From IMG/VR virus record IMGVR_UViG_3300027708_000021: a stretch of 64,000 bases of DNA; one strand, written 5' to 3'. A program made the translations under genes and the position numbers. The stretch comes from a virus. Shown here one piece after another: positions 1,908 to 40,564 of the stretch. Position 1 is the stretch's first letter, and each line of letters starts with the position of its first letter. Under the pieces are notes generated by a model. It was not told where the DNA came from, ran no database searches, and saw nothing but the letters and a program-made list of their open reading frames with translations.

Positions 1908-1913
1908 GGGTAA

Positions 1914-3089: not shown

Positions 3090-3114
3090 TGGTTCTAGCA
3101 TTTGTATTTTCACA

Positions 3115-3120
3115 TAAATA
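3115..3120 (+). promoter_or_regulatory. Late promoter TAAATA
   Basis: Motif followed by AAGGA SD and ATG 3140; same motif at 4486, 8336, 12689, 21968, 53118, 55524, 59233, 62441. Confidence 0.7.
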
Positions 3121-3139
3121 ATCAAAAGGATTCTTTCTG

Positions 3140-3757: not shown

Positions 3758-3766
3758 GGAATAAAA

Positions 3767-4488: not shown

Positions 4489-4511
4489 ATATTAAATTAT
4501 CAGGATACTAA

Positions 4512-8266: not shown

Positions 8267-8365
8267 TGTATACAGTTAATTCAAAAATAAAACAAGGCTT
8301 TTAATACCGTAAAACCAAATTTTTCCCAAAGCGAATAAATAACTTTATAACAGGAGACTATTACC

Positions 8366-12637: not shown

Positions 12638-12657
12638 AAATTAAGATAAAGTGAGAA

Positions 12658-12685
12658 AACAGGACCCTTGTGGTCCTGTTGTTTT
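12658..12685 (+). terminator. Rho-independent terminator
   Basis: AACAGGACC-cttgt-GGTCCTGTT followed by GTTTT, just upstream of late promoter 12689. Confidence 0.7.
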
Positions 12686-12716
12686 GACTAAATAATACTA
12701 ATATATTGGAAAAACA

Positions 12717-22003: not shown

Positions 22004-24622
22004 ATGGCATTCCCTAGCTCACCAACAAACGGTCAACAGACCACTATAAACGGTATAACTTATCAGTATTCCAGTACTAGTAATTCGTGGACTAGAGTAA
22101 TATTACCATTTGCTAATATAGCGGCCAACGGTTATATTACTGCTACCAGTTATATCAGTGCAGCTGGCAATGTCCTTGGCAATAATATCATTGCCACTGG
22201 CAATATAGTTGGTAACTTAACTACTTCTGGCGCCGTATCTACTACGGGTAATATCTACGGTGGCAATGCGCTAATTTCTGGAAATGAATCAGTAACAGGT
22301 AATGTTATAGCCGGTAATATCTCTACAGGCACTTTCAGTGCCACTGGTAATATCACATCAAATAGTTATATTATCGGTAACGGAGCATTCTTATCCGGCA
22401 TACTTGTCAGCAGCTCAGGCAATATTTCTAGTGGTCAAAGTAATGTATCTATAAATGCTGCCAATGCCAATGTGACAGTTGGCGTAAGCACAGTGGGTAA
22501 TGTAGCAGTATTCACTCCTCTAGGATTAAATGTCACCGGCGCTATTAGTGCCAGTGGTAATGTAACAGGATTAGGATTTTTAAGTACAGGCGGTGCTGGA
22601 GTTATTTCTGGTTCTGGTAACATTATCGCAGGTAATTTCTTTTCTACTGGTAATATAAGTGTAGCAGGTAATGTAACAGGGGTGGGGCTTATATCCACAG
22701 GTGGCGCTGGTACTGTCAGTGCTAGTGGTAATGTAACTGGCGGAAATTTATTAACACCTAATAATGTTAGTGCTGGCGGTAATATAACCAGTGCAATATT
22801 TGTTACTACTGGAGCTAACGGTATAATATCTGGTGCTGGTAATATCTATGCTGGTAATATAAGTGCTACTGGCAATATCCTGGCTAATTTTGCAAGTGTC
22901 GTAGGTAACATATACGGCGCCAATATTATTGTAAATAATTTTGCTATCCTCTCAAGTTTTAGTGTTACTGGTAATATCACTGGAGGGAATCTACTTACTC
23001 CTAACAATGTTAGTGCTGGCGGCAATGTAACAAGCGCGGCTCTTGTTACCAGCGGAGCTGGTGGCATACTATCTGGTACAGGTAATATCTTTGCCGGTAA
23101 TATAAGTGCTAGTGGTAATATTTTTACCGGCACTAATTTAAGTGCTAGTGGCAATGTCTTAACAAGCGGCCTAATCAGCGCCGCTGGTAATGTTCTTGGT
23201 AATAATGTTTCGGCTAATATCTTAAATGCTACCAATTATATCAGTACCGTTGGTAATATATACGGAGCCGCTGCTACCATAGGTAATATAACCGTTACTG
23301 GAAGTTACAGCCTTACTGGTAATGTTGTTGGCGGAAATTTATTAACTAGTGGCTATGTCAGTGCTACTGGTAATGTAACGAGTTCAGCACTAATCACTAG
23401 CGGAGCTGGTGGTTTAATATCTGGTACAGGTAATATCTTTGCCGGTAATATAAGTGCTAGTGGTAATATTGTAGCCAACATTAGTTCAGCTAATACCATC
23501 AGTGCTGTCGGTAACATATTCAGTGCTAATGCAAACATAGGAAATTTATTTACAACATCGAGTTTCAGTACCGCCGGCAATCTAACAGGAAATACTATCC
23601 TTACTTCAGGTACTGCGGGCAACATTTCCGGTTCAGGTAACATCATTGCTGGTGCGTTGATTACAATCGGAACAGGTGGTATCATATCTGGTACTGGCAA
23701 CATTATTGCCGGTAATATACTTTCTACGGGTAATCTCGTCACAGCATCGGGTACAGGTGGTAATATTACTGGCGCCAATGTTATCTCTTCTAATACATTT
23801 AATGCAGTCACAGTCAGTGCTACTGGTAACGTATACGGTGCCAATGCTATTATAGGTAATATATCTATTACTGGAAATTACAGCGTTACAGGTAATGTAA
23901 CCGGTAATAATATTACTACTCTAGGTAGTGCGGGTAATATCTCCGGTTCAGGTAATATCATCGCTGGTGCTTTGATTACTACTGGCGCTGGCGGCATACT
24001 ATCTGGTACTGGTAACATCTATGCTGGCAATATAATTTCTGCGGGTAATCTCGTCACAGCATCGGGCACTGGTGGAAATATTACTGGGGCCAACGTTATC
24101 TCTGCTAATACATTTAGTGCTGTGGTAGTAAGTGCCACGGGTAATATACAAACAAGTAATTATTTCGTTGGCAATGGTTTTTACATAACAGGAGTTGGCG
24201 GACTCAATATCACTGATCAGCTAGCATCAGCTAATGTATTCTATCCGTTATTAGGCAACACTTCATCTGGTACACTAAATGCTGTTAACACTAGCAGTAC
24301 TAAATTAAACTATGTACCCAGTACCGGTACACTAAGCTCTACGGTATTTAATACTACATCTGATGCTGATAAAAAATCAAATATTGAAATTATAGCCAAC
24401 GCACTAGATATCGTTAACAATTTACGCGGGGTGACATTTGAATTCACTGACACTGGCGCACAGTCAGCTGGCTTGATAGCACAGGATGTGGAAAAATATT
24501 TGCCCCAGCTGGTAACAGCGTCAGACAACGGCAAGGCATTAAACTATAATGGAGTGATTGGCATACTGGTCGAGGCAGTGAAAACCCTGTCTGAGCAAGT
24601 CAAGAAATTGGAGGGCAAGTAA
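22004..24622 (+). CDS. Tail fibre with C-terminal peptidase S74 intramolecular chaperone
   Basis: MAFPSSPTNGQ N-terminus; GNIxA repeats; TSDADKKSNI...GLIAQDVE..LP.LV...LNYNGVIGILVEAVKTL plus coiled coil. Confidence 0.85.
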   Translation: MAFPSSPTNGQQTTINGITYQYSSTSNSWTRVILPFANIAANGYITATSYISAAGNVLGNNIIATGNIVGNLTTSGAVSTTGNIYGGNALISGNESVTGNVIAGNISTGTFSATGNITSNSYIIGNGAFLSGILVSSSGNISSGQSNVSINAANANVTVGVSTVGNVAVFTPLGLNVTGAISASGNVTGLGFLSTGGAGVISGSGNIIAGNFFSTGNISVAGNVTGVGLISTGGAGTVSASGNVTGGNLLTPNNVSAGGNITSAIFVTTGANGIISGAGNIYAGNISATGNILANFASVVGNIYGANIIVNNFAILSSFSVTGNITGGNLLTPNNVSAGGNVTSAALVTSGAGGILSGTGNIFAGNISASGNIFTGTNLSASGNVLTSGLISAAGNVLGNNVSANILNATNYISTVGNIYGAAATIGNITVTGSYSLTGNVVGGNLLTSGYVSATGNVTSSALITSGAGGLISGTGNIFAGNISASGNIVANISSANTISAVGNIFSANANIGNLFTTSSFSTAGNLTGNTILTSGTAGNISGSGNIIAGALITIGTGGIISGTGNIIAGNILSTGNLVTASGTGGNITGANVISSNTFNAVTVSATGNVYGANAIIGNISITGNYSVTGNVTGNNITTLGSAGNISGSGNIIAGALITTGAGGILSGTGNIYAGNIISAGNLVTASGTGGNITGANVISANTFSAVVVSATGNIQTSNYFVGNGFYITGVGGLNITDQLASANVFYPLLGNTSSGTLNAVNTSSTKLNYVPSTGTLSSTVFNTTSDADKKSNIEIIANALDIVNNLRGVTFEFTDTGAQSAGLIAQDVEKYLPQLVTASDNGKALNYNGVIGILVEAVKTLSEQVKKLEGK

Positions 24623-27600
24623 TGCCTTTTAATCAAGACAATTCAGATATATCTACATATTTTTCCAAGATAACGGATTATAGCGGGTGGACCAACTATT
24701 CCAGTGCCCAAGTAATTGGCAATAACAGTTATGGGCAGTTGGGTCTCAACACTAGAACTAACTATAGTAGCCCAGTGGTGGTAACACAAAGTACTAATCC
24801 CACTTGGCTAGATGCCGCGTATGTTAGATCTGGCCTTGGTCTAGCTTTAGTAAATCAAAATAATCAACCATTCTATTCTGGAGTAGCATTTTCAGATACC
24901 ACTAACAGAAGTAGTCCAGTACAAGTTAGCGCAGTAAGCAACTGGACACAAGTTGCTTGCGGATATGCTCACACCGCAGCTCTACAAAATAATGGCACAT
25001 GGTGGACTTGGGGAATAAATAGTTACGGACAACTAGGCCTTAGTAATACAACTAATAGATCAAGCCCGATTCAAGTAGGCACATTAAATAGCTGGACACA
25101 AGTCTCGTGTGGGTATATGTACACTACAGCTATAATAAGTCCTGGCATCTTATATGCCTGTGGATATAATAGCAGCGGTCAACTAGGCCTTAATACGAGT
25201 ACAACAGCCATCTCCAGTCCAGTTCAATTAGGTTTAGGACTGGCAGCTTTGTGGAATCAAGTTTCTGCTGGAGTGCAGTCCGCATTAGCTATACAAAGCA
25301 ATGGTACACTATGGTCATGGGGCAATAACAGTTATGGTCAATTAGGTCTTAGTAATATAACTCATAGAAGTAGTCCAGTACAAGTAGGCGCAATAAATTA
25401 TTGGACACAAGTTGCTGCTGGGTATTATCATGTTGCGGCCATACAAAGCCCTGGCACCTTATGGACCTGGGGACAAAATAATTTTGGTCAATTGGGTAAT
25501 AATAGTATAACTAATCAATCAAGTCCAATACAAATATCATATCCATTGCTAGGGTTAGCATCATGGCGAAGTCTTGGGTCGTTTTTCGGGTGGCATCAAT
25601 TAGGTATACAAACCAATGGCACGTTGTGGGCTTGGGGATGGAATGTCACTGGCCAGTTAGGACTTAGTAATACAACTGCTAGAAGTAGTCCAGTACAAGT
25701 TGGCACATTAAGTACCTGGACTCAGGTTGCTGGTGGTGGCCTCAATAATGGTTTTACCATAGCTATACAAACACCAGGCACACTTTGGGCATGGGGTAAT
25801 GATGGGTATGGGCAATTAGGTCTTAACACTACAACAAATTATTCTAGTCCAGTACAAGTAGGCGCACTAACTAATTGGACTCGAATTGCTGTCGGAGCAG
25901 CATATTATACTACAGTAATCCAAAGCAATGGTACACTATGGTCGTGGGGTAATAATAGTTTTGGTCAATTAGGTGTAAGTAATAGTACCCACTATTCTAG
26001 CCCAGTACAAGTAGGAGCATTGAGTGTTTGGACTCAAGTGGCATGTGGTTATAGCCATACTGTAGCTATACAAACTAATGGTACACTTTGGAGTTGGGGA
26101 GCTAATACTCGTGGACAATTAGGACTTAATACTACTACCATAAATTTATATAGTCCAGTTCAAGTGGGCGCACTAAGCACATGGACTCAAATCTCATGTG
26201 GATATTACCATACACTAGCATTACAAACACCAGGCACATTATGGGCCTGGGGACTTGGCCTAACCGGCCAATTAGGAAATAATAGTACAATAATTCAGAT
26301 TAGTCCAGTACAAATAGGCGCTCTAAGTAATTGGACTCGGGTATCTGGTGTGGCTACGGCCTCTTTCGCTATACAAACGCCAGGCACATTATGGGCATGG
26401 GGAGCAAATAGTACTGGCCAATTAGGTCTCAATACCACAGTAGGAGTGTTTAGTCCAGTACAAGTAGGATCACTAAGTAATTGGACTCAAGCAGGTGGTA
26501 TATCATTGCTCAGTGCGTGGGGTTTAGTAAGCCCGGGTGTGTTATATGAATGGGGTAATAATAGTTATGGTCAATTAGGAGCCAATACCGCAGCAACTAA
26601 TCCGGTATCAAGTCCAGTATTAATATATTCGGCTACAATTCCTGGTACTTGGAATCGTGTAGCATGTGGATATGGCCATACTGTTGCTATACAAAGCAAT
26701 GGCTCATTATGGTCGTGGGGAATAAATAATTACGGACAACTAGGCCTTGGCGATACAGTTAATAGAAGTAGTCTAATACAAATAGGATCAGCAAGTGCAT
26801 GGACCCAAGTCTCCGCTGGCGTCAATCAGATCTATGCGCTACAAAGTCCAGGAACATTATGGGCATGTGGTTACAATGGCTTTGGTCAGTTGGGTAATAA
26901 TAGTGTATTTAATGTATCAAGTCTAGTACAAGTGGGCACAATTAACTACTGGACACAAGTGGTCGGTGGCGGTGATTCTGCGTTTGGAATACAAAGTCCT
27001 GGAACATTATGGGCTTGGGGCAATAATAGTTATGGCCAATTAGGGTTTAGTGATCAAACAAATCGTTCTAGTCCAGTACAAGTAGGTCCTCTGAGTATAT
27101 GGACTCAAGTCTCTGCTGGGAATAACTTTGCTATTGCTGCACAGAGTAATGGTACGCTATGGGCGTGGGGTCTAAACAGTCAAGGCCAATTGGGTCTCAA
27201 TACCACAGTTGGTGTATCTAGCCCAGTACAGGTAGGCACGTTAAGCATATGGACTCGAGTGGCAGCTGGATTTTATTCTTCTTACAGTATCCAAACGTCA
27301 GGTACATTATACTCATACGGATTTAACTCGCTTGGAGAATTAGGACAAGGCGATACTACTAATCGTTCCAGTCCATTACAAATAGGTTCTGGACTATGGA
27401 CTCAGGTATCAGCTGGTTATCAGCATGCCGCAGCTATACAAAGTCCAGGCACATTATGGTCCTGGGGTAATGATGGGTATGGCCAATTAGGCCTTGGCAC
27501 TATAATTAATAGAAGTAGTCCAACACAAATTGGTGCGTCGAGTATATGGACTCAAGTTTCTTGTGGTCAATTAAATACTGTAGCTATACAAAGATACGGG

Positions 27601-29982
27601 GCTACATCATCAGGTACATTATGGACTTGGGGTAATAATAGTTTTGGGCAATTAGGACTTAATGATACCACACACCGTTCAAGCCCAGTTCAAGTAGGTG
27701 CGTTGACCACTTGGACACAAGTCTCCTGTGGATATTATGTTACAGCGGCTATACAAAACAACAGTACATTATGGATTTGGGGTTATAATAATCTTGGCCA
27801 ATTAGGACTTAATGATCTTACCAATAGAAGTAGTCCAGTACAGATAGGCGCACTTAGTACATGGACTCAAGTTTCTGCTGGATATCGTGTTACTGCTGGA
27901 CTAACAGCGCCAGGAATACTATATGCGTGGGGTAATAATAACAACGGGCAATTGGGACTTAACACTACTATTGGTGTATCAACACCTGTACAAGTAGGAA
28001 CATCAAGTACATGGACTAGTGTTACTAGCTCGTCGCAAGAGACATTGGCTATACAAAATAATGGCACATTATATGCGTGGGGATTGAATAGTTTTGGTCA
28101 GTTAGGCTTGTATAATCCGGCAGCATATTCAATTACCAATTACCCTAGTCAGTTCAGCACAGGAAATTATAAAAAAGTTACTACCAGCTATACCCAGAGC
28201 TATTTCCAAAAAACCGCGGATAATACCATAGTTCAGACTGGCACAGCAGATATACCCACTATAGATACCACTAACAGTATAGCTTGGTCAAGTTATGATA
28301 CAGGAGCTTATCATTTTGTTGGAGTACAAACCAATGGTACCGCTTGGAGTATAGGCGACAATAGTTATGGTCAACTGGGCCTTAATACTACAACAAGTAG
28401 TTACTCATCATTGACTCAGATCGGGTCTGGTTCCAACTGGGCAAGAGCCATAGCCGCTGATTACGGAAGTATGTTGATTGACAACAGCAATAATGCTTGG
28501 GTGTTTGGCAATAACAGTCAGTATCAACTGGGGTTAAGCGATCAAACCAACAGATCAAGTCCAGTACAGATTGCCTATATCACTGGTATTAGAAATGCAG
28601 CCATGGACAACAGTAACGTTTGGATGATCGATGGCAACAATAATCTCTGGGGCGGTGGTGCGTATAATGTCAGAGTAGCTATTAATACTTTACCAAATGT
28701 ATCAACACCTAGCCAAGCACCATTGAGTAACTGGACTACAGTGGTTGCCACGCAATATTCCACTCTTGGCATACAAAGCAATGGTACACTATGGTCATGG
28801 GGCAATAACAGTTATGGTCAATTAGGACAAGGAAATTTAACAAATCTTTCTACTCCTGTACAAGTTGGTGCCCTGAGTACCTGGACTAAGATTTCTGGTG
28901 TGGTTTCCACTGTTGCTATACAAACCAATGGCACATTATGGTCTTGGGGATTGAATAACGTTGGCCAATTAGGCAGTAGCAATACAACTAATAGAAGCAG
29001 TCCAGTACAGGTAGGAGCATTGAGTGTTTGGACACAAATTGCCTGCGGATATGCTCATACCGCATCTGTACAAACTAATGGTACGTTGTGGAGTTGGGGA
29101 GCCAATTCGTTTGGTCAATTAGGACTTAACGACGTGACAATTCGTTTAAGTCCAGTACAAGTGGGCGCATTGAGTGTATGGACTCGAGTGGCTAGTGGAG
29201 CTGCGCAAACTGCGGCATTACAGACTAATGGTACATTATGGGCCTGGGGTAATAACAGTTTTGGTCAGTTAGGTCTCAACGATGTGACACATCGTTCTAG
29301 TCCGGTACAAGTAGGTTCGTTAAGCACATGGACTCAAATTTCTTCTGCGCTTTCAGGTTATGCCACTGCAGCCATACAAACTCCTGGCACATTATGGATG
29401 TGGGGACTTAACACTTATGGACAATTAGGTTTAAATGATATAACCAATCGTTCTAGTCCAGTACAGGTAGGCGCACTTAGTACATGGGCCCGTGTTGCCT
29501 GCGGATATCAACACACTTTATCTGCGCTGAGTGATGGTACATTATATGTGTGGGGTAATAACAGCTACGGACAATTAGGTCTTAGTAATTCGACTAACAG
29601 AAGTAGTCCGGTACAATTAGGATCAACAAGTACATGGGCTCAGATCTCTGGTGGATATTTTCACACTACCGGAATACAAACTCCAGGTACATTGTACACT
29701 TGGGGTTATAATTTATTTGGGCAATTAGGTTTACCTGCTGTTCAATTTCCAAGACAACAGTTTGCCAGCAACTTATGGAACAATGCGGCTACCAATCAGG
29801 ATACTACATTATTAGTTTCTGTGAATAGTATAGTATATGGATTTGGAGTTAACAGCTATGGACAGTTAGGCATCAATACTTCTGGAGCTCCTTATCAATC
29901 TAGCCCCATACAAATTGGCTTTATAAATACTACAACAAAGGTAGAGACCAAAGCTGGTTCTTCTATAATATTATTTAAATGA
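24622..29982 (+). CDS. Giant RCC1/BLIP-II repeat beta-propeller protein (about 35 blades)
   Basis: About 50-aa repeat WTQVACG..HT.AIQ.NGTLWSWG.N..GQLG.....RSSPVQVG; TAATG-coupled to the S74 fibre gene. Confidence 0.9.
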   Translation: MPFNQDNSDISTYFSKITDYSGWTNYSSAQVIGNNSYGQLGLNTRTNYSSPVVVTQSTNPTWLDAAYVRSGLGLALVNQNNQPFYSGVAFSDTTNRSSPVQVSAVSNWTQVACGYAHTAALQNNGTWWTWGINSYGQLGLSNTTNRSSPIQVGTLNSWTQVSCGYMYTTAIISPGILYACGYNSSGQLGLNTSTTAISSPVQLGLGLAALWNQVSAGVQSALAIQSNGTLWSWGNNSYGQLGLSNITHRSSPVQVGAINYWTQVAAGYYHVAAIQSPGTLWTWGQNNFGQLGNNSITNQSSPIQISYPLLGLASWRSLGSFFGWHQLGIQTNGTLWAWGWNVTGQLGLSNTTARSSPVQVGTLSTWTQVAGGGLNNGFTIAIQTPGTLWAWGNDGYGQLGLNTTTNYSSPVQVGALTNWTRIAVGAAYYTTVIQSNGTLWSWGNNSFGQLGVSNSTHYSSPVQVGALSVWTQVACGYSHTVAIQTNGTLWSWGANTRGQLGLNTTTINLYSPVQVGALSTWTQISCGYYHTLALQTPGTLWAWGLGLTGQLGNNSTIIQISPVQIGALSNWTRVSGVATASFAIQTPGTLWAWGANSTGQLGLNTTVGVFSPVQVGSLSNWTQAGGISLLSAWGLVSPGVLYEWGNNSYGQLGANTAATNPVSSPVLIYSATIPGTWNRVACGYGHTVAIQSNGSLWSWGINNYGQLGLGDTVNRSSLIQIGSASAWTQVSAGVNQIYALQSPGTLWACGYNGFGQLGNNSVFNVSSLVQVGTINYWTQVVGGGDSAFGIQSPGTLWAWGNNSYGQLGFSDQTNRSSPVQVGPLSIWTQVSAGNNFAIAAQSNGTLWAWGLNSQGQLGLNTTVGVSSPVQVGTLSIWTRVAAGFYSSYSIQTSGTLYSYGFNSLGELGQGDTTNRSSPLQIGSGLWTQVSAGYQHAAAIQSPGTLWSWGNDGYGQLGLGTIINRSSPTQIGASSIWTQVSCGQLNTVAIQRYGATSSGTLWTWGNNSFGQLGLNDTTHRSSPVQVGALTTWTQVSCGYYVTAAIQNNSTLWIWGYNNLGQLGLNDLTNRSSPVQIGALSTWTQVSAGYRVTAGLTAPGILYAWGNNNNGQLGLNTTIGVSTPVQVGTSSTWTSVTSSSQETLAIQNNGTLYAWGLNSFGQLGLYNPAAYSITNYPSQFSTGNYKKVTTSYTQSYFQKTADNTIVQTGTADIPTIDTTNSIAWSSYDTGAYHFVGVQTNGTAWSIGDNSYGQLGLNTTTSSYSSLTQIGSGSNWARAIAADYGSMLIDNSNNAWVFGNNSQYQLGLSDQTNRSSPVQIAYITGIRNAAMDNSNVWMIDGNNNLWGGGAYNVRVAINTLPNVSTPSQAPLSNWTTVVATQYSTLGIQSNGTLWSWGNNSYGQLGQGNLTNLSTPVQVGALSTWTKISGVVSTVAIQTNGTLWSWGLNNVGQLGSSNTTNRSSPVQVGALSVWTQIACGYAHTASVQTNGTLWSWGANSFGQLGLNDVTIRLSPVQVGALSVWTRVASGAAQTAALQTNGTLWAWGNNSFGQLGLNDVTHRSSPVQVGSLSTWTQISSALSGYATAAIQTPGTLWMWGLNTYGQLGLNDITNRSSPVQVGALSTWARVACGYQHTLSALSDGTLYVWGNNSYGQLGLSNSTNRSSPVQLGSTSTWAQISGGYFHTTGIQTPGTLYTWGYNLFGQLGLPAVQFPRQQFASNLWNNAATNQDTTLLVSVNSIVYGFGVNSYGQLGINTSGAPYQSSPIQIGFINTTTKVETKAGSSIILFK

Positions 29983-31472
29983 CCTCAAGCAATTATCTTA
30001 ATAATGCTGTTGATCTGGACAGCACATACATAGTTAACAATGATCCTAACTATCAAGGTATCCAGTCGGCGGTTACAAGTAGAAAGACTGTGATGTTTGG
30101 TCAGCAGATATTATCACAGACATATCCCATAGGCAATCTTAATAATGCTATCAACTATGCTCAATCTATACCCAGTCCAATAGTTGACCAAGACTCTGTT
30201 AATATTACTGGAGTAACACCTACTGCTGTATTTTATCGAAGTCGCGCCAACACCAGTCAAAGCACAGTAAGAGGAAATTTTAATCTACTAGAAAATATTC
30301 CGCAGACTACACCCTGGCAGACCACTCCCTCGCTGGGAAATTCCAGTACGCCAGTACAGTCAGGTTCTACGGCCAGTAACTGGAGTCAAATTGCATCTAA
30401 TTACCAGAGCGGCAGTGGCGGCGCCCCGGGGCTGGCTCCTGCGCTTGCACTTCAAAGCAATGGCACATTATGGGGTAGCGGATATAATAGCCGAGGCGCA
30501 TTGGGAAATAATTCTACTTCTGATTCAACTTTTTTCCAGCAAGTAATTGGACCCAACGCAACAGGTCCGATTAATTCTTGGTCTCAGGTTGTTGGTAGTA
30601 AGTGGGTATTGGCCATACAAAGTAATGGCACACTATGGTCATGGGGCTATAATCTTGCCGGCGAGTGCGGCCTCGGTACTGCCAATAATTCTTTCTCCAG
30701 TCCAGTACAAATAGGCACATCGCTTTGGTCTAAAATTGCTTGTGGTTACTCGTCTAATTTGGCCATACAAACTAATGGCACATTGTGGGCTTGGGGTCAG
30801 CAAAGATACGGACAATTGGGAAATGGGTCAACTGTTATAGGTAGTCTTAGTAGTCCAGTACAAATAGGCATTCAAAGTTATTGGGTCAATGTGGCCAATG
30901 GAAGTAGAAATAGTTTTATGTTTCAAAACAATGGCGTACTATGGGGTTCGGGAGATAATATTTTTGGAGCATTGGGAAATAATACCACTACCAGTTTTTC
31001 TACCCCCGTACAGGTAAGCACAATTAGTAATTGGAGTCAAGCAGCTTGCGGGTATAACTTTAGTGTAGCATTGCAAAGTAATGGCACGCTGTGGACGTGG
31101 GGTAATAATAGTTTTGGTCAGTTGGGTCAAAGCGATCTAATAAATCGCTCCAGTACAACACAAGTAGGCTCACTGAGTACATGGGTACAGATTGCCTGCG
31201 GCTATAGTCATGCTGTGGCTGTTCAAAGCAATGGCACAATATGGGCATGGGGCAATAATAGTTTTGGTCAGTTGGGTCTAAGTGATGTGACGCATCGTTC
31301 AAGTCCAGTACAGGTGGGTGCGCTGAGTGCGTGGACTCGTGTTGCTTGTGGAGGATATTATACTCTAGCTGTAAACAATGGTGTAATATATGGGTGGGGG
31401 AATAACTCTGCTGGTCAGTTTGGGCTTACTCCCACGGCAAATTCAGTAACTAAAGTAACATATGGATTATAA
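29979..31472 (+). CDS. RCC1 repeat protein (one 7-blade propeller plus divergent N-terminus)
   Basis: Seven canonical repeats from about aa 135; ATGA-coupled. Confidence 0.88.
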   Translation: MTSSNYLNNAVDLDSTYIVNNDPNYQGIQSAVTSRKTVMFGQQILSQTYPIGNLNNAINYAQSIPSPIVDQDSVNITGVTPTAVFYRSRANTSQSTVRGNFNLLENIPQTTPWQTTPSLGNSSTPVQSGSTASNWSQIASNYQSGSGGAPGLAPALALQSNGTLWGSGYNSRGALGNNSTSDSTFFQQVIGPNATGPINSWSQVVGSKWVLAIQSNGTLWSWGYNLAGECGLGTANNSFSSPVQIGTSLWSKIACGYSSNLAIQTNGTLWAWGQQRYGQLGNGSTVIGSLSSPVQIGIQSYWVNVANGSRNSFMFQNNGVLWGSGDNIFGALGNNTTTSFSTPVQVSTISNWSQAACGYNFSVALQSNGTLWTWGNNSFGQLGQSDLINRSSTTQVGSLSTWVQIACGYSHAVAVQSNGTIWAWGNNSFGQLGLSDVTHRSSPVQVGALSAWTRVACGGYYTLAVNNGVIYGWGNNSAGQFGLTPTANSVTKVTYGL

Positions 31473-31476
31473 TTAA

Positions 31477-34400
31477 ATGGCAGATTTCGCATACGGCTTT
31501 AGACAAAATACCAATTATGTTATCACAAGTAACACGATGTATGAGATTGGTCGCAATTATAGATTTAATCAATCTGTGCCCTGCCAGACAGCTAATCAGG
31601 CAAATTACTGGACTCAGGTTTCCACCGGCAGTCAATATGCTTTAGGAATAGAAAGTCCAGGAACATTGTGGTCTTGGGGAAATAACAGTTTTGGTCAATT
31701 AGGGTTAAACACATCAACAGGTAACTTTTCTACTCCTATACAAGTGGGTACATCGAGTCTATGGACACAAATTTCAGCTGGCCCTCAGTTTGCTCTAGCT
31801 ATCCAAACACCTGGCACATTGTGGTCGTGGGGGAATAATACCCAAGGACAGTTAGGGCAGAGTAACACTACTAACTATAGTAGCCCAATCCAAGTAGGTA
31901 CGACATCAACTTGGACTAGAGTGGCTTGTGGATATTATCACGCTGTAGCTTTACAAGCGAATGGTTCATTATGGACTTGGGGTAATAACAGTTACGGTCA
32001 ACTAGGACTCAGTGATCAGACAAATCGTTCTAGTCCAGTACAGGTAGGAGTATTAAGCACATGGACTAGTGTAGGGGCCGGTGGTTACTTTACTGTTGCC
32101 ACGCAAACATCTGGTACATTATGGGCCTGGGGTAATAACAGTTTTGGTCAATTAGGCCTCAATACTTTGACTAATATTTCTAGTCCAGTACAACTGACTC
32201 CTTTGGCTTTGTGGAGTAAGATAGCTACATCTAATGGATCTACCACTTCTGTAATAGGAATACAAAGCAATGGCACACTATGGGCTTGGGGCAATAACAC
32301 TTTGGGTCAGTTAGGGGTCAATACTACAACAACTAGCTATTCTAGTCCAGTACAAGTTACTACACTAAATGGGTGGACACAAGTTGCTAGCGGACTTTAT
32401 TTCACTGCGGCACTACAAACTCCTGGCACACTATATGCTTGGGGTAGTAACAGTTACGGCCAACTAGGAATTAATACTGCAGTAGCCCAAACGCGATCGA
32501 GCCCAACATTAATAGGATTGCCGCCAACAGGTTTATGGAGTAAAGTATTGGCATCTTGTGGCTATTCTACAGCATCAATTCAAAGCGATGGCACACTATG
32601 GACATGGGGTAATAATCCTAACGGTCAATTAGGCCTTGGCGATCTAACAAATCGTTCCATCCCAATACAAGTAGGTACATTGAACACGTGGAGCCAACTT
32701 GCTGGCGGGCAATTTGGTTTTATGCTAGCTATCCAGACACCAGGAACATTATGGTCCTGGGGTGTAAATAACTTTGGTCAATTGGGTCTTAACACATCAA
32801 CTAACTACTCTAGTCCCATACAAGTGGGCACACTGAACTATTGGACTCGAGTTTCCAGCGGATATTTTCATACAGCGGCCATATTAAGCCCAGGTACATT
32901 GTGGACATGGGGTTTTAATGCTTATGGTCAAAATGGTCTCAATACTTCGACTAGCTACTCTAGTCCGGTACAAGTGGGAGCATTGAACTATTGGACTCAA
33001 GTTGCTTGCGGATATAATCATACTGCGTCTATTCAGAGCCCCGGTACACTATGGACCTGGGGTAGTAACAGTTACGGCCAACTGGGCATTAACACTGCAA
33101 TAGCCCAAACCCGATCAAGTCCAGTACAAGTGGGTACGCTGAGTACATGGACCCAAGTTGCCTGCGGATATAATTATACTGCGGCCATACAAAGCCCGGG
33201 CACATTGTGGATGTGGGGAAATAACAGTTTTGGCCAATTAGGACAAAGCAACACTACTAACAGAAGTAGTCCAGTACAAGTAGGAGCATTATCTATATGG
33301 ACCAATGTGTCGACTGCTACTAGTAGTAGTAATTCTTTTACTGCAGCCATACAAACGCCAGGAACATTATGGACTTGGGGTAATAATAGTTTTGGTCAAC
33401 TAGGGCTTAATACTTCCACATTAAGTAATATTTTCAGTCCAGTGCAAGTTGGTGCTCTGAGTACGTGGACCCAAATCTCTGCCGGAGTAGCGTATACCGC
33501 AGCTATACTGAGTAATGGAATATTGTATGAATGGGGTCAGAATAATGCTGGACAATTGGGGCAAAATAATACATCTAATCGTTCCAGCCCAACACAAATA
33601 GGTGGGCCATCGTGGACACAGGTCGCTTGCGGATATTATCATAGCACAGCCATACAAAGCAATGGTACATTGTGGTCATGGGGAGCAAATAGTTTTGGTC
33701 AATTAGGGCTTAATACTTCAATATTAAGTAATATTTCAAGTCCAGTACAAGTTGGAGCATTAAGTGTATGGACTCGCGTAGCTCTCGGCAATTATCACAC
33801 TCTAGGTATACAAACCCCGGGTACATTATATGCTTGGGGATTGAATAGTTTTGGTCAATTAGGTACAGGTAATCAAACAAATCTTTCAAGTCCATTACAA
33901 GTTGGCGCACTATCAATCTGGACACAGATTGCTTGCGGATATAGTCATACACTTGCTATACAAACGCCAGGCACACTATGGTCATGGGGTAATAATAGTT
34001 TTGGTCAGTTAGGTCTTAGCGATCAGACAAATAGAAGTAGCCCAGTACAATTAGGTTCATTAAGCACATGGACTCAAGTCTCATGTGGAGCATATTGGTC
34101 TATGGCACTGCAAAACAATGGTACATTATGGTCTTGGGGACTAAACTCATTTGGCCAATTAGGCACCAGCAATCAAGTAAATTATTCTAGTCCAGTACAA
34201 GTAGGCATACTAAGTATCTGGTCTCAAATTGGTAGCCAAGGCAATGCCGCCGCAGTTATACAAAGTAACGGTACATTGTGGTCATGGGGAAGTAATAGTT
34301 TTGGCCAGTTAGGTCTCAATACTAGTACTAATTGGTCTAGTCCAGTACTAATAAACGGAATAAGTAATTGGATACAAGTCACATGTGGCTACTCAAACAC

Positions 34401-37400
34401 ACTGGCATTACTGAGCAATGGCTCATTATGGGCTTGGGGCAATAATGTTCAGGGTCAATTAGGTCTTAACACTTCAACTAACTACTCTAGTCCAATACAA
34501 GTAGGCTTATTAAGTTTATGGTCACAAGTATCCAGCGCAGGGTCTTCCACTACAGCTATACAAACACCGGGTACCTTATGGTCTTGGGGATTGAATAGTT
34601 ACGGCGCTTTAGGTCTCAATACTTTAACCAATTACTCTAGCCCAGTACAAATAGGCAATCAATCTTATTGGACTCAACTGGCTGTTAACAATTTTGGAAG
34701 TAGTGCGGTCAGTCAAGGTTTCATGGCTGCCATACAAAGCCCAGGTACACTATGGCTTTGGGGTAATAACAGTTATAATCAATTAGGCTATAGTCCGATA
34801 TCTTATAGAAGTTTTGCCACTCAGATAGGTACATCAGGAGCGTGGACAGGATTCCCCACAGGATCACAGAATAGTATATGGGGCGCCGCAATAAATTCCA
34901 ATAACAATTTATATGTCTGGGGTGTTAATTCCAATAGAATATTAAATTCTAATTATTATATCTATGATACCGTTGATACCATAGCACAAGGTTCAGTTAT
35001 AGTAAATCCAGTGCCGTTAGATCCTACATTAAGCACACCTATTAAATCAGTGTCGATCGGTGATCAGTTTGGTGTATATGTACAGACTAATGGCACATTA
35101 TGGTCTTGGGGCAATGTAAGTTTTGGTCAAGTGCCCGTAGGAATTCGATCAGTGCCAAGTGCGACTTATATGTCAGGCTGGACTAGAGTGGCTTCTGGGC
35201 CCAGCATCAGTTATCAAAGCATAGCTATACAAAGTCCAGGGACACTATGGTCGTGGGGAAATAATGCAAATGGAGCGTTGGGACTTAGTGACACATCAAC
35301 TCGATCAAGCCCAGTACAAGTGGGCACAACAAGTACTTGGACGCAAATTGCCTGCGGGTATAATTTTAGTACAGCCCTACAAAGCAATGGGTCATTATGG
35401 TCATGGGGTTATAATGCTCATGGAGAATTAGGCCTGAGCGACACAGCAAATCGTTCTAGCCCAGTACAAGTGGGGGCATTAACTAGTTGGACGCAGGTTG
35501 CCAACGGTTATATATATTCAGTAGCTTTACAAACTAATGGTACATTATGGTCATGGGGTTACAATGGTAATGGTCAATTAGGCACTAACAGTCTAACTAA
35601 TGTTTCTAGTCCAGTAGTAGTGGCCTCTAGTGCGTATACGGCTGTATGGGCTAGTACAAATGGTGGTGGTGGTGGTTCCAGTTTTACAGCAGCAATACAA
35701 AGCAATGGTACACTATGGACATGGGGGTCAAATGCTGTTGGTGGGCAATTAGGTCTCGGCGATACAAATAATAGAAGTATTCCAACACAAGTGGGTTTAT
35801 CGAGCACATGGACCCAAATTTCTAGTGGAAATTATTTCACTGTAGCCCTACAAACTCCTGGCACATTATGGGCATGGGGGAATAACAGTCAAGGGCAATT
35901 GGGTCTTAACACATTAACTAACTACTCTAGTCCCGTACAAATGGGTGCGGTAAACTATTGGACGCAAGTATCCTGTGGTTATCAGCATACTGTTGCTCTA
36001 CAAACTCCAGGAACATTATGGTCCTGGGGAAATAACAGTTTTGGTCAGTTAGGCCTCAGCGATACGGTAACTCGTTCTAGTCCAACGCAAGTAGGTGTAC
36101 TGAACTATTGGACACAAGTCTCAAATGGACATAATTTCACAGCAGCCATACTAAGCCCTGGCACATTATGGGCATGGGGCGGTAACGGGGATGGTCAATT
36201 GGGTCAAAGTAATACCACTGATCGATCAAGTCCAGTACAAGTAGGCGCACTGAGTATATGGACTCAGGTTGCCTCCGGAGTTAGATTCATGCTAGCATTA
36301 CAAAGCAACGGCACACTATGGGGTTGTGGATACAATTTTTTAGGTCAATTAGGAAATAATAGTACAACTAATCAATTAAGTCTAGTACAAGTGGGCTCGT
36401 TGAGTGTATGGACTAGAGTATCTGCTAGTACTTACCAGTCTATTGGATTACAAAGCAACGGCACACTATGGGCCTGGGGGTTTAATAGTAGTGGTCAATT
36501 GGGAGTCAGTAATACAACTAATAGATCCAGTCCAACACAAGTAGGCACTCTAAGCTCATGGACTCGAGTCTCTGCTTTAAACAGCTTTTCAAATGCTATA
36601 CAAAACGATGGTACATTATACATCTGGGGCACCAATGGCGGCAATGGACAATTAGGAAATAATAGTACAATTAATCAATCAAGTCCTATACAAGTGTCAT
36701 TAGTAGTTGGAGTACCTAGTACCGCATGGAATAAAATTTCCTGCGGATATGGTCAGACAGCAGCACTACAAAGCGATGGTACATTATGGGCTTGGGGTTA
36801 TAATAATTTTGGACAATTAGGAGTCGGTGATACCGTAAGTCGTTCTAGTCCAGGTCAAATAGGACAATCACCAGGTATTGGGCTATGGAACAAGATCAGT
36901 GGCGGCGGCGCATACTTTGCAGGAATTCAAAGCAACGGAACGCTATGGTCGTGGGGCAGTAATTTTTTGGGTGCGTTGGGACTTAATGACCAAAACAATC
37001 GGTCTAGTCCAGTGCAGATAGGCGCATTGAATATCTGGAGTCAAATCTTTTGCGGTCTAGACGCCAGTACACTAGCTATACAAAGCCCTGGTACATTATG
37101 GGCCTGGGGGCGCAATGATCTAGGCCAATTAGGTATTAGTACTATAACAAATCGTTCAAGTCCAACACAAGTAGGCGCAGTAAATTATTGGACAACTGCC
37201 GCTGTAGGAGCAGAGCATGCCTTAGCAATACAAAGCCCAGGTACACTATGGTCTTGGGGTTTTAATAATAATGGACAATTAGGTAATAATAGTAACTCTA
37301 ATAGAAGTAGCCCAGTACAAATTGGCCTATCAAGTACTTGGACTCGAGTGGCCTGCGGATCTTATTATACCGTAGCTATCCAAACACCAGGTACATTGTG

Positions 37401-38736
37401 GGCATGGGGAGATAATAGTTGGGGACAATTAGGCACCAGCAATCAATTTAATCGTTCTAGTCCAGTACAAATAGGCGCATTAAGTGTATGGACTCAAATT
37501 GCCTGCGGATACTCCAGCACAATAGCATTACAAAGCAACGGCACACTATGGACTTGGGGCAATAATAGTTATGGTCAACTAGGGCTCGGCGATCAAATAC
37601 ATCGATCTAGTCCAGTACAAGTGGGTCTATTAAGTCAATGGTCTCAGATCTCTTGCGGATATTATTTTAGTTCAGCTATACAAAATAATGGCACACTATG
37701 GTCATGGGGACTTAACAGTTATGGTCAACTAGGCCTAAGCGATGCAACAAATAGATCTAGCCCAGTTCAAATAGGCTCACTAAGTGTATGGGCTCAACTT
37801 GCACCCACTGGTGATTATAATATGGGGGCTATACAAAGTAATGGAACATTATGGACTTGGGGTAGAAATGACTCTGGTCAATTGGGTCAGAATAATATAG
37901 TTGCTGCTCAATCTAGTCCTGTACAATTAGGCGGTGGACCAACCTGGACTCAATTATCTGCTGGGTATTACTACACCGCAGCTATACAAACACCAGGTAC
38001 ACTATGGACTTGGGGTAATAATAGTTTTGGTCAACTGGGCAGTAGTAACACAACACATAGATCTAGTCCAGCACAAGTTGGTGCGTTGACCACATGGACA
38101 CAAGTTAGTTGTGGATACTATAGTACACTGGCAACACAAAGCAATGGCACACTATGGACTTGGGGTAATAACAGTTATGGTCAATTAGGTCAAAATGATA
38201 GTACTAACCGTTTTAGTCCAGTACAAGTAGGCACATTGAGTAATTGGTCTCAACTTAGTAACGGAGCCGCATTCTTAGCAGCCATACAAAGCAACGGAGT
38301 ATTATCACTATGGGGTAATAATAGTTATGGTCAACTAGGTTATGCTGCTGTGGTCGCTCCGCTTCAGGTGTCTACACAATCAATTTGGTCGCAAGTGGCT
38401 TGCGGTGTAAATCATGCCTTGGGTGTTCAAAGTAATGGCAGTCTTTGGGCATGGGGTAATAATAGTTTTGGCCAGTTGGGCACCAGCGATGTAACACATC
38501 GTAGTAGCATAACACAAGTAGGCACATTATCCAGCTGGAGTCGCGTGGCCTGCGGATTAGCGCACTCTGCGGCATTACAAAGTAATGGAACATTGTGGGC
38601 TTGGGGCAATAATAGTTGGGGTCAATTGGGACAAGGTAACATTACTAACACATCAAGTCCTGTACAAGTTGGCTCCTTGAGCAGATATGTATCAGTATAT
38701 GCTATGAATTATACTACCTTGGCAGAAACACAATGA
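31477..38736 (+). CDS. Giant RCC1/BLIP-II repeat protein (about 47 blades)
   Basis: Two blocks of 21 canonical repeats plus flanking core blades. Confidence 0.9.
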   Translation: MADFAYGFRQNTNYVITSNTMYEIGRNYRFNQSVPCQTANQANYWTQVSTGSQYALGIESPGTLWSWGNNSFGQLGLNTSTGNFSTPIQVGTSSLWTQISAGPQFALAIQTPGTLWSWGNNTQGQLGQSNTTNYSSPIQVGTTSTWTRVACGYYHAVALQANGSLWTWGNNSYGQLGLSDQTNRSSPVQVGVLSTWTSVGAGGYFTVATQTSGTLWAWGNNSFGQLGLNTLTNISSPVQLTPLALWSKIATSNGSTTSVIGIQSNGTLWAWGNNTLGQLGVNTTTTSYSSPVQVTTLNGWTQVASGLYFTAALQTPGTLYAWGSNSYGQLGINTAVAQTRSSPTLIGLPPTGLWSKVLASCGYSTASIQSDGTLWTWGNNPNGQLGLGDLTNRSIPIQVGTLNTWSQLAGGQFGFMLAIQTPGTLWSWGVNNFGQLGLNTSTNYSSPIQVGTLNYWTRVSSGYFHTAAILSPGTLWTWGFNAYGQNGLNTSTSYSSPVQVGALNYWTQVACGYNHTASIQSPGTLWTWGSNSYGQLGINTAIAQTRSSPVQVGTLSTWTQVACGYNYTAAIQSPGTLWMWGNNSFGQLGQSNTTNRSSPVQVGALSIWTNVSTATSSSNSFTAAIQTPGTLWTWGNNSFGQLGLNTSTLSNIFSPVQVGALSTWTQISAGVAYTAAILSNGILYEWGQNNAGQLGQNNTSNRSSPTQIGGPSWTQVACGYYHSTAIQSNGTLWSWGANSFGQLGLNTSILSNISSPVQVGALSVWTRVALGNYHTLGIQTPGTLYAWGLNSFGQLGTGNQTNLSSPLQVGALSIWTQIACGYSHTLAIQTPGTLWSWGNNSFGQLGLSDQTNRSSPVQLGSLSTWTQVSCGAYWSMALQNNGTLWSWGLNSFGQLGTSNQVNYSSPVQVGILSIWSQIGSQGNAAAVIQSNGTLWSWGSNSFGQLGLNTSTNWSSPVLINGISNWIQVTCGYSNTLALLSNGSLWAWGNNVQGQLGLNTSTNYSSPIQVGLLSLWSQVSSAGSSTTAIQTPGTLWSWGLNSYGALGLNTLTNYSSPVQIGNQSYWTQLAVNNFGSSAVSQGFMAAIQSPGTLWLWGNNSYNQLGYSPISYRSFATQIGTSGAWTGFPTGSQNSIWGAAINSNNNLYVWGVNSNRILNSNYYIYDTVDTIAQGSVIVNPVPLDPTLSTPIKSVSIGDQFGVYVQTNGTLWSWGNVSFGQVPVGIRSVPSATYMSGWTRVASGPSISYQSIAIQSPGTLWSWGNNANGALGLSDTSTRSSPVQVGTTSTWTQIACGYNFSTALQSNGSLWSWGYNAHGELGLSDTANRSSPVQVGALTSWTQVANGYIYSVALQTNGTLWSWGYNGNGQLGTNSLTNVSSPVVVASSAYTAVWASTNGGGGGSSFTAAIQSNGTLWTWGSNAVGGQLGLGDTNNRSIPTQVGLSSTWTQISSGNYFTVALQTPGTLWAWGNNSQGQLGLNTLTNYSSPVQMGAVNYWTQVSCGYQHTVALQTPGTLWSWGNNSFGQLGLSDTVTRSSPTQVGVLNYWTQVSNGHNFTAAILSPGTLWAWGGNGDGQLGQSNTTDRSSPVQVGALSIWTQVASGVRFMLALQSNGTLWGCGYNFLGQLGNNSTTNQLSLVQVGSLSVWTRVSASTYQSIGLQSNGTLWAWGFNSSGQLGVSNTTNRSSPTQVGTLSSWTRVSALNSFSNAIQNDGTLYIWGTNGGNGQLGNNSTINQSSPIQVSLVVGVPSTAWNKISCGYGQTAALQSDGTLWAWGYNNFGQLGVGDTVSRSSPGQIGQSPGIGLWNKISGGGAYFAGIQSNGTLWSWGSNFLGALGLNDQNNRSSPVQIGALNIWSQIFCGLDASTLAIQSPGTLWAWGRNDLGQLGISTITNRSSPTQVGAVNYWTTAAVGAEHALAIQSPGTLWSWGFNNNGQLGNNSNSNRSSPVQIGLSSTWTRVACGSYYTVAIQTPGTLWAWGDNSWGQLGTSNQFNRSSPVQIGALSVWTQIACGYSSTIALQSNGTLWTWGNNSYGQLGLGDQIHRSSPVQVGLLSQWSQISCGYYFSSAIQNNGTLWSWGLNSYGQLGLSDATNRSSPVQIGSLSVWAQLAPTGDYNMGAIQSNGTLWTWGRNDSGQLGQNNIVAAQSSPVQLGGGPTWTQLSAGYYYTAAIQTPGTLWTWGNNSFGQLGSSNTTHRSSPAQVGALTTWTQVSCGYYSTLATQSNGTLWTWGNNSYGQLGQNDSTNRFSPVQVGTLSNWSQLSNGAAFLAAIQSNGVLSLWGNNSYGQLGYAAVVAPLQVSTQSIWSQVACGVNHALGVQSNGSLWAWGNNSFGQLGTSDVTHRSSITQVGTLSSWSRVACGLAHSAALQSNGTLWAWGNNSWGQLGQGNITNTSSPVQVGSLSRYVSVYAMNYTTLAETQ

Positions 38737-39869
38737 CCTATAATATAAACAGTAGCCAAGTACTCAATAATAGATATTTTAGTAATTCTACATTTTCCGC
38801 AAACAATGCATTGTATGCCTGGGGTAATAACACTTTTGGTCAATTAGGCCTCAGCGATACAACTAACAGATCAAGTCCAGCGCAAGTTGGCACCTTGAAC
38901 TACTGGACCCAAGTATCCTGCGGATATAATTATTTCTCTCTAGCACTACAAAGTCCAGGAACATTATGGTCCTGGGGAAGCAATTCTTTTGGTCAGTTGG
39001 GTGTTAATACCGCGCCTACAAACAATACCTCTAGCCCAGTACGTGTAGGCTCACTAAGCAACTGGCTACAAATAGCAGCTGGTAACGCCCACTGGTTAGC
39101 TATCCAAAGCCCAGGCACATTATGGAGTTGTGGATATAATGGATACGGTCAGTTAGGTCTTAATACTTCAACAAATTATTCTAGTCCTGTACAGATTGGC
39201 GCTTTGAACACTTGGACACAAGTAGCAGCTGGTAATTACTCTAGTTATGCTATACAGAATACCGGAACACTATGGTCTTGGGGAGTTAATACCTATGGAC
39301 AGTTGGGTCAAATTAATACTACAAACTATTCTAGTCCAGTACAAGTAGGTACATTGAGCACTTGGACACAGATATCCGTGAATTCTACATCTGCTACTGC
39401 TCTAGCAATACAAAGCAATGGTACATTATGGTCGTGGGGCATCAATAATTATGGTCAAATAGGCAATAGCAATACTGTTAATCAATCTAGTCCAGCGCAG
39501 ATAGGCACTTTATCTCTTTGGACCAGAATCGCCAACGGTGGATATTCAAGCTATGCTATACAAAGCAATGGTACACTATGGGCATGGGGATTGAACAGCC
39601 AAGGTCAACTAGGTCTTAACACCACTGTAGGAGTATCTAGTCCGGTACAAGTGGGTACAGCTAGTACTTGGTCGCAGGTAGGCGCCGGCGCACTACAGTT
39701 GATAGCTATACAAAACAATGGCACGTTATGGATGTGTGGCTATAACGCCCAAGGTCAATTAGGAAACAATTCAACTACCAACATTTCTACACTCACCCAA
39801 GTAGGGTCACTAAATAAATGGAACTTTGCTACAGGTGCTTGGCAGATTTTGGCACAGCAAATTCCTTAA
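38733..39869 (+). CDS. RCC1 repeat protein (single 7-blade propeller)
   Basis: Half + six + half repeats, the usual velcro closure; ATGA-coupled. Confidence 0.88.
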   Translation: MTYNINSSQVLNNRYFSNSTFSANNALYAWGNNTFGQLGLSDTTNRSSPAQVGTLNYWTQVSCGYNYFSLALQSPGTLWSWGSNSFGQLGVNTAPTNNTSSPVRVGSLSNWLQIAAGNAHWLAIQSPGTLWSCGYNGYGQLGLNTSTNYSSPVQIGALNTWTQVAAGNYSSYAIQNTGTLWSWGVNTYGQLGQINTTNYSSPVQVGTLSTWTQISVNSTSATALAIQSNGTLWSWGINNYGQIGNSNTVNQSSPAQIGTLSLWTRIANGGYSSYAIQSNGTLWAWGLNSQGQLGLNTTVGVSSPVQVGTASTWSQVGAGALQLIAIQNNGTLWMCGYNAQGQLGNNSTTNISTLTQVGSLNKWNFATGAWQILAQQIP

Positions 39870-39885
39870 TTTAGACAGGTGATTA

Positions 39886-40536: not shown

Positions 40537-40564
40537 TTAGAAGTATCTAAACGGAAAAATTATC

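Follow-up and report, generated by a model that had tools for sequence, protein, structure and literature searches.

The 64,000-nucleotide (nt) stretch of viral DNA considered here (IMG/VR virus record IMGVR_UViG_3300027708_000021; hereafter the window) contains four plus-strand open reading frames (ORFs) at positions 24622-39869, which encode proteins of 1786, 497, 2419 and 378 amino acids (aa) and whose stop and start codons overlap or lie 4 nt apart. The four genes probably encode virion-fibre-associated RCC1 propeller proteins built by recursive domain insertion. In the proposed architecture, a complete seven-blade propeller, or one already carrying another, would sit as an insert in a loop of a host propeller, in most cases the linker that joins strand D of a blade to strand A of the following one, and the host propeller would close around the inserted excursion. 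Insertion into a closed core is very probably real, and the internal partition of the 21-blade blocks described below is held in its exact form with moderate confidence. A family-wide rule, in which complete seven-blade propellers act as cassettes that are inserted to a depth of as many as three levels and with several branches on one host, is slightly favored; it would give chains of 2 to 13 propellers (378 to 4655 aa) that form branching trees of propellers on the fibres of phages and that differ between related phages by whole cassettes gained or lost. The strongest evidence is comparative, namely the quantised inserts found at fixed sites of a unique core when related sequences are aligned. 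The four genes are as follows.

24622..29982, plus strand: 1786-aa RCC1 protein with 35 blades, comprising a divergent seven-blade core, a 21-blade block and a seven-blade cassette.
29979..31472, plus strand: 497-aa protein, with an N-terminal domain of ~130 aa lacking repeats followed by one seven-blade RCC1 propeller.
31477..38736, plus strand: 2419-aa RCC1 protein with 47 recognisable blades, comprising two 21-blade blocks on conserved unique segments.
38733..39869, plus strand: 378-aa protein forming a single seven-blade RCC1 propeller, with strands C-D first and strands A-B last (velcro type).

Profile searches revealed PF00415 matches to 41 stretches of the 2419-aa protein, to 26 of the 1786-aa protein, and to 5 and 6 of the two single-propeller proteins, and the whole-propeller family PF25390 matched the four proteins with 1928, 1131, 228 and 251 bits (cut-off, 150). 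GQLG-type anchors recur at a spacing of 49-56 aa, and exactly seven of them are present in the 378-aa protein. Blades of ~50 aa number 35, 7, 47 and 7 in the 1786-, 497-, 2419- and 378-aa proteins, respectively (~96 in total). Each blade consists of four strands, A to D, in which the only long, flexible connection leads from strand D to the next strand A. The B-to-C turn of all blades is a tight hairpin of two residues, which means that ring boundaries cannot fall inside blades. All family members, from 378 to 4655 aa, start with a C-D half-blade and end with an A-B half-blade.

In the 1786-aa protein, the segments are arranged as follows.

24622..24933, plus strand: core piece 1 (aa 1-104), comprising c2 and, at the N terminus, strands C-D of core blade c1 as a half-blade.
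24934..28146, plus strand: 21-blade block of canonical blades after core blade c2, with the partition 2:2:7:5:5 (colons separate runs of blades).
28147..28737, plus strand: core piece 2 (aa 1176-1372), the divergent core blades c3-c6.
28738..29742, plus strand: seven-blade cassette (aa 1373-1707) after core blade c6, with 7 anchors and 6.6 blade lengths.
29743..29979, plus strand: core piece 3 (aa 1708-1786), comprising c7 and, at the C terminus, strands A-B of c1 as a half-blade.

Read as strands, the three core pieces give exactly seven divergent blades, with c1 split between the two termini. The core would be closed by pairing of the N-terminal C-D half-blade with the C-terminal A-B half-blade, and it would carry a 21-blade excursion after blade 2 and a seven-blade excursion after blade 6. 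The non-repetitive core segments are common to eleven metagenomic proteins of 1082 to 4655 aa, with 38-84% identity (38-67% for core piece 1 in 11 orthologues and 42-71% for core piece 2). The canonical blades located at the three fixed core sites number 0, 7, 14, 21, 28 or 63. Across 12 orthologues, site 1 (after c2) measures 6.8, 13.9-14.1, 20.6-21.1, 28.5 or 63.2 blade lengths, site 2 (within c4) measures 0 or 7.1-7.3, and site 3 (after c6) measures 0, 6.5-6.9, 13.9 or 20.9. At site 3, P0102 and P0016 have no insert, and inserts of 7, 14 or 21 blades are found there in other orthologues. The same host is continuous in some relatives and interrupted in others; in P0102, sites 2 and 3 are uninterrupted, and elsewhere they contain 7, 14 or 21 blades. 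The largest of these chains, P0126 (4655 aa, metagenome), has the same core with an insert of ~63 blades at site 1 and another of 21 blades at site 3, corresponding to thirteen propellers per chain, and representatives as long as 7235 aa match the block. The preliminary description of this DNA had hung the canonical propellers of the 1786-aa protein from a divergent core of about seven blades; the number is exactly seven, and the further seven-blade insert that it proposed is located at aa 1373-1707.

The insertion at site 2 lies within a blade. In P0016, P0011 and P0008, a seven-blade cassette is found inside c4, between the GQLG loop and strand D (in P0016, the flanks are aa 828-915 and 1205-1290, and likewise in P0011 and P0008). 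In all three proteins, strand D of c4, with its conserved sequence and its linker into c5, resumes past the seven inserted blades. The site-2 cassette must be a closed excursion, because c4 cannot be completed unless the chain returns.

Complex prediction was carried out with aa 1-104, 1176-1372 and 1708-1786 as separate chains, each with its own orthologue alignment. The predicted core complex reached an interaction prediction score from aligned errors (ipSAE) of 0.88, with 0.15 for the best of three controls; of 80 solved complexes, 58 reach the mark set for this score, as do 2 of 110 mismatched pairs. The runs share at least 85% of their contacts, and the partner predicted local distance difference test score (pLDDT) is at least 62. 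The closest pairs are aa 1780-1783 with aa 30-34, a predicted N-to-C strand pairing with an expected error of 0.5-0.7 Å, and aa 1185-1193 (strand A of c3) with aa 64-77 (c2); residues 26-35 of core piece 1 touch the C-terminal strand in the model. The predicted contacts are those expected from velcro closure and from the blade order. The complex score supports the contact between the pieces without demonstrating it, and the pass may reflect a likeness to solved RCC1 propellers, as the pieces belong to one RCC1-like domain (RLD).

These observations bear on the plain alternative that the propellers are beads on a string or the repeats an open solenoid, with the blades in one continuous superhelix and no nesting, and that the sums to seven are a by-product of the duplication of seven-blade units. 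Tandem propellers are common, linear relatives exist, and unclosed arcs, as in an open solenoid, appear in the AlphaFold2 models described below. On such a string, however, the complementary terminal half-blades cannot be placed, c4 cannot be completed in the three orthologues in which seven inserted blades precede its strand D, and the conserved core blades would have to swap partners between orthologues. Moreover, AlphaFold2 gave no in-phase runs, and the core pieces are predicted to reassemble with a score far above that of the best control. This alternative is therefore considered highly improbable. At the top level, the claim that propellers are inserted in propellers rather than strung in a line is well supported by the quantised inserts, the within-blade cassette, the complementary terminal half-blades and the complex prediction taken together.

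A comparable organization is seen in the 2419-aa protein, in which two 21-blade excursions would be carried on a smaller conserved frame. Beyond the N-terminal piece, its segments are as follows.

31609..34815, plus strand: block A (aa 45-1113), 21 blades with the partition 4:2:7:5:3.
34816..35172, plus strand: unique middle segment (aa 1114-1232), two divergent blades.
35173..38367, plus strand: block B (aa 1233-2297), 21 blades with the partition 3:7:1:7:3.
38368..38733, plus strand: conserved C-terminal segment (aa 2298-2419), two blades and the terminal A-B half-blade.

The frame consists of an N-terminal C-D piece, the two middle blades, and the two C-terminal blades with the A-B half. 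In the family of this protein, the N-terminal, middle and C-terminal unique segments are conserved and the two blocks measure 7, 14 or 21 blades. The middle segment is 38-78% identical in 11 orthologues, irrespective of how large the flanking blocks are, and the C-terminal segment is 55-78% identical. Block A of the orthologues contains 7, 14 (4:7:3 or 3:7:4) or 21 blades, and block B contains 7, 14 (3:7:4) or 21 blades; the exceptions, near six blades, are block B of P0034 (5.8) and block A of P0006 (5.9).

The internal partition of the 21-blade blocks was approached through the linkers. A position-specific score for the linker from strand D to strand A was built from 353 regular repeat units, and ordinary linkers score 22-39 bits, with outliers at -19 to 15 bits. 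In the block of the 1786-aa protein, the outliers lie at aa 199-213, 302-317, 663-679 and 918-928 (positions 25216-25260, 25525-25572, 26608-26658 and 27373-27405) and score -6.6, -12.3, -10.5 and -8.3, all the other linkers scoring at least 21.7. The outliers of block A are found at aa 237-248, 341-356, 705-715 and 956-967 (32185-32220, 32497-32544, 33589-33621 and 34342-34377), with scores of 15.2, -5.5, -4.4 and 13.3 and at least 22.7 elsewhere. Those of block B are located at aa 1379-1393, 1737-1753, 1792-1806 and 2147-2159 (35611-35655, 36685-36735, 36850-36894 and 37915-37953); the first, third and fourth score -5.1, -7.8 and 11.3, the second is strongly atypical, and all others score at least 20.5. 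The scoring thus confirmed the atypical inter-blade linkers of these RCC1 proteins where the preliminary description had placed them. Within each 21-blade excursion, the partition proposed there is the most economical reading of the linkers: block A would comprise a (4+3) propeller containing a (2+5) propeller containing one of 7, block B would follow 3,[7],1,[7],3, and the block of the 1786-aa protein would be (2+5) containing (2+5) containing 7.

The partition was evaluated by a blind test. A pure nest of k propellers needs 2(k-1) boundaries, and the 2(k-1) lowest-scoring linkers were therefore taken from each block; a nest was counted as valid when the host segments total seven and every guest in turn qualifies as a propeller. 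Enumeration gave 6 valid choices out of 78 for blocks of 14 blades and 51 out of 4845 for blocks of 21. Valid nests were obtained in all three 21-blade blocks of the window and in 14 of the 18 blocks overall; compared with the enumerated odds, this indicates that the linker pattern behind the nested partition is real and not due to chance. The passing blocks outside the window include 4:7:3, 3:7:4 and 2:7:5 in orthologues, 2:3:7:4:5 in a family of 1097-aa proteins, 2:7:2:7:2:7:1 in P0012 and 3:7:2:7:2 in P0125, so that the same linker grammar recurs in relatives with other split points. A self-calibrated linker score for distant homologues was also tried and was dropped as too noisy, with missed anchors and a different consensus.

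The main competitor to the nested partition keeps the interrupted core and treats the excursions as looped-out strings, in which the propellers are consecutive or other runs (e.g., 6,[7],1 then 7, or 3,[7],[7],4) and the odd linkers beyond the strongest are only local variants or hinges. This arrangement, which is judged unlikely, leaves two outlier linkers per block unexplained and forces a boundary onto a very ordinary linker (36.5 bits, after blade 14 of block A), whereas the nested reading uses all four outliers and needs no ordinary linker as a boundary. Given the two strong opening linkers, the nest also correctly places the remaining two lowest-scoring linkers in each of the three window blocks. 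In addition, within the 21-blade block of the 1786-aa protein, the linker that follows blade 2 is similar to the one at the boundary in P0102, a 14-blade orthologue of 1082 aa (2:7:5), and the best blade match falls on the last blade ahead of the closing linker.

Several observations weigh against the exact nested partition. Block A of P0243 (10:7:4) demands a tandem boundary at a near-ordinary linker (score, 26.4), as looped-out strings would, and linkers one residue short, which are the norm within one cassette of P0020, are thus also found within rings; because of these two cases, the rule that an ordinary linker implies the same ring is not strict. Some relatives read 7:7:7:7 or 7:7:6, again as expected for looped-out strings. 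Furthermore, any double nest of the form a:b:7:(7-b):(7-a) can also be parsed as (a+b),[7],(7-a-b) followed by a consecutive seven, and the AlphaFold2 models roughly follow this second parse. Comparison of seven-blade units gave no discrimination, with a mean best-shift excess of 9.21 for the nested and 9.25 for the linear arrangement. Blade-level comparison of 14- and 21-blade orthologues, which had been suggested as a check and was run, proved uninformative: orthology is recognisable only in the blades beside the unique segments, the inner ones look as if they had been homogenised or exchanged, and no signal favors either partition. A deletion scan, in which each seven-blade run of block B was removed and the remainder aligned to the 14-blade P0243, produced a flat plateau spanning blades 6-12 to 12-18. 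No near-identical relatives that could give sharp indel boundaries were found, the best being 53-55% identical. Finally, the frame of the 2419-aa protein (31477-31608, 34816-35172 and 38368-38733) has only five recognisable blades, so that the protein has 47 blades and not 49, and the model leaves this unexplained. If that five-blade remainder is counted as one propeller, the four genes encode 14 propeller-sized units (5+1+7+1), in agreement with the estimate of about 14 made at the outset.

Structure prediction adds to these points. Block A (aa 41-1118; 80 homologous segments) and block B (aa 1228-2306; 70 segments) were folded with AlphaFold2. The alignment rows were repeat segments in arbitrary register, with no in-register orthologues for whole blocks, and the models are probably biased toward contacts between consecutive blades because the rows are out of register. 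The block A model has a mean pLDDT of 85.3 and a predicted template modelling score (pTM) of 0.47, with blades 5, 6 and 14 at pLDDT 41-64. Closed rings were found only at blades 7-13 and blades 15-21, and the phase is broken at the linker of aa 341-356. Blades 7-13, to which WD40 chains align at residues 305-697, are the inner seven of the preliminary description; blades 15-21 close as a consecutive ring across the linker of aa 956-967, with UVR8 aligned to residues 720-1078. Seven-blade ring closure is seen in the superposition of UVR8 on the block A model (Z score, 54.4; root-mean-square deviation (rmsd), 1.6 Å; 351 residues) and on the block B model (Z score, 36.0; rmsd, 2.2 Å; 362 residues). 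Over its first 300 residues, the block A model had no match among solved propellers.

The block B model (mean pLDDT, 82.7; pTM, 0.46) is unsure at the lone blade 11. Its closed ring runs from about blade 11/12 to blade 17/18, where UVR8 aligns to residues 520-878 with an rmsd of 1.9 Å and HERC2 RLD3 aligns to residues 542-894 with an rmsd of 1.8 Å. Blades 4-10 align only at ~7 Å rmsd, and blades 1-10 form an oversized arc that aligns with the nine-bladed eIF2A. A velcro closure of the inserted rings with boundaries at B-C turns (compare the HERC2 alignment to residues 542-894, model 2) was considered and rejected, because every B-C turn is a tight hairpin and it is the D-A linkers that contain the atypical sequence.

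A ring of discontinuous blades was not detected in either block model, although ring membership was read from the aligned ranges of structural matches, by which discontinuous rings could have been missed. Three in-phase consecutive propellers were not formed either, the phase being broken at the strong linkers. The preliminary description had proposed structure prediction of overlapping fragments and had named consecutive closure as the outcome that would speak against it; by that measure, the outcome speaks against the three-deep partition in its exact form, which was not reproduced, as the models closed consecutive runs (blades 15-21 of block A and about 11-17 of block B) across two of the atypical linkers, in line with looped-out strings, and left other blades unplaced. 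Where the models differ from the nest, however, AlphaFold2 is unsure (pLDDT 41-68). The result is not decisive, because the pTM is low, the confidence is low at the disputed blades and the alignments are out of register; the models are, at most, mild evidence against the partition in its exact form.

The genes are embedded in a conserved context.

22004..24622, plus strand: upstream fibre gene (872 aa), whose stop codon overlaps the start of the 1786-aa RCC1 gene.
39886..46309, plus strand: downstream modifying-enzyme genes (216, 259, 260, 457 and 955 aa), a conserved context outside the propeller proteins.

The 872-aa fibre protein carries a C-terminal intramolecular chaperone (PF13884, Peptidase_S74, at aa 786-837; E 2.4e-12), ahead of which lies a long shaft of short Gly-Asn-Ile/Val-rich repeats. 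A 952-aa protein encoded upstream shares 39-40% identity with Synechococcus phage virion structural proteins, and the window, judged from its sequence, resembles a structural module as found in T4-like cyanomyoviruses. The RCC1 genes are thus found in a tail/baseplate module beside a fibre gene, with the S74 fibre directly upstream and cyanomyovirus structural homologues farther upstream. For two other upstream ORFs (8366-12637, 1423 aa; 12717-18320, 1867 aa), a weak tail-fibre PHROG match to the first is the sole family match. The genes 3′ of the RCC1 cluster encode glycosyltransferase-, methyltransferase- and sulfotransferase-like enzymes together with oxygenase-like proteins, and the 955-aa protein has glycosyltransferase and methyltransferase PHROG matches; a megablast search of the downstream region against phage records gave no match. 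The RCC1 proteins are nearly uncharged (D+E, 0.3-2.2%; K+R, 1.3-2.8%; D+E+K+R, ~3%) and rich in N+S+T (32-36%), and the proteins encoded at 24622-39869 contain 4-5 N-x-S/T sequons per 100 aa. This unusual composition, together with the downstream transferase- and oxygenase-like genes, suggests that the fibres may be modified.

A similar setting is found in Synechococcus phage S-SRM01, in which single-propeller RCC1 genes lie between baseplate wedge/long-tail-fibre genes and sugar-modifying genes, and a sulfotransferase comes after the RCC1 genes. A Joint Genome Institute (JGI) metagenome contig, L002 (positions 1-14891), has a gene order identical to that of window positions 22004-41344, with proteins of 478, 1082, 487, 2066, 380 and 216 aa followed by a sulfotransferase. 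The 478-aa protein occupies the position of the 872-aa fibre of the window, and the next four are RCC1 proteins, of which those of 487 and 380 aa are the counterparts of the 497- and 378-aa proteins. The large orthologues are shorter than those of the window by 704 and 353 aa, equal to two propellers and one propeller, respectively. The 497-aa and 2419-aa genes, set apart by a 4-nt spacer in the window, are also split in L002, so that their separation is not a recent frameshift.

Functionally, the chains, as branched trees of rigid discs, would present a multivalent display of propeller faces that bind host surface structures, and the gain or loss of cassettes between related phages would vary specificity. 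The putative fibre or adhesin role is proposed because the genes follow the S74 fibre in the tail module and their pairing with modifying enzymes is conserved, and because the composition is fibre-like and cassettes vary between related phages; multivalent host binding as an adhesion array is a putative role drawn from the gene context. By analogy, mass spectrometry has identified an RCC1-domain protein among the virion proteins of the jumbo phage GAP32 (PMC5259590).

The blade motif and the seven-blade fold are the same as in RCC1, UVR8, the HERC2 RLDs, RPGR and BLIP-II, and the single-propeller members share with the RLDs the velcro of N-terminal C-D and C-terminal A-B strands. Known RLDs occur as single or separate propellers along the chain, whereas the hosts described here are interrupted by guests, and the propeller units per chain number up to seven in the window and thirteen in P0126. 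Unlike RCC1, these proteins have no apparent link to Ran or to guanine nucleotide exchange factor activity; their setting is a phage structural module and they contain almost no charged residues. In tandem double propellers, the propellers are consecutive, not inserted, and neighbours are not known to exchange more than one strand. Such proteins (Aip1, 1nr0/1pgu; Utp21, 4nsx; GH74 xyloglucanases) resemble the present ones in having several seven-blade propellers per chain, and their alignment with both closed rings of block A covers ~500 residues of the model with an rmsd of 8-13 Å. The C-terminal domain of phiKZ gp131 (PDB 4gbf) is likewise a seven-blade propeller that ends a phage tail/baseplate protein (Z score, 17.5; rmsd, 4.5 Å; 275 residues), but it is one propeller and belongs to another sequence family.

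The nearest published case is the N-terminal RLD of human UBR5, a discontinuous seven-blade propeller that is closed despite inserted domains (10.1101/2023.06.06.543850; PDB 8p83, 8d4x), including an insertion of ~270 residues between the third and fourth strands of a blade (10.1101/2023.06.06.543850). The UBA-bearing insertion of UBR5 in blade 2 is in the same position as the site-2 cassette of P0016, P0011 and P0008. The guests of UBR5, however, are UBA and small beta-barrel domains rather than propellers, and they are inserted at one level, without recursion or quantised cassettes. In integrins with an alpha-I domain (PMC12422189), the ligand-binding domain is inserted between blades of the seven-blade propeller of the alpha subunit; this guest is Rossmann-like and a single insertion in a eukaryotic receptor, unlike the propeller guests here. 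In the literature searched on nested or inserted propellers and on RCC1 proteins in phages and cyanophages, no description of this architecture was found. Two apparent literature matches to 'RCC1' were discarded: those for prasinoviruses are culture-collection strain numbers and those for RcGTA are locus tags.

Domain insertion into propellers is already known, and what would be new is insertion of the same fold, recursive and strictly quantised in seven blades across dozens of natural variants, with several guests per host. If the architecture is confirmed, it would offer protein designers a natural rule by which a single repeat is built into branched, rigid and multivalent scaffolds and, as AlphaFold2 failed to settle the nesting, a hard test case for structure predictors. 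Metagenomes abound in giant RCC1 proteins, with 180,566 cluster representatives matching at E values of up to 0.001 and some of them longer than 7000 aa, and the building rule may therefore apply widely. For the phages themselves, the architecture would, if true, be an undescribed means of varying host recognition by the gain and loss of whole cassettes at fixed sites and, if confirmed, a candidate mechanism for adhesin variation in freshwater cyanophages.

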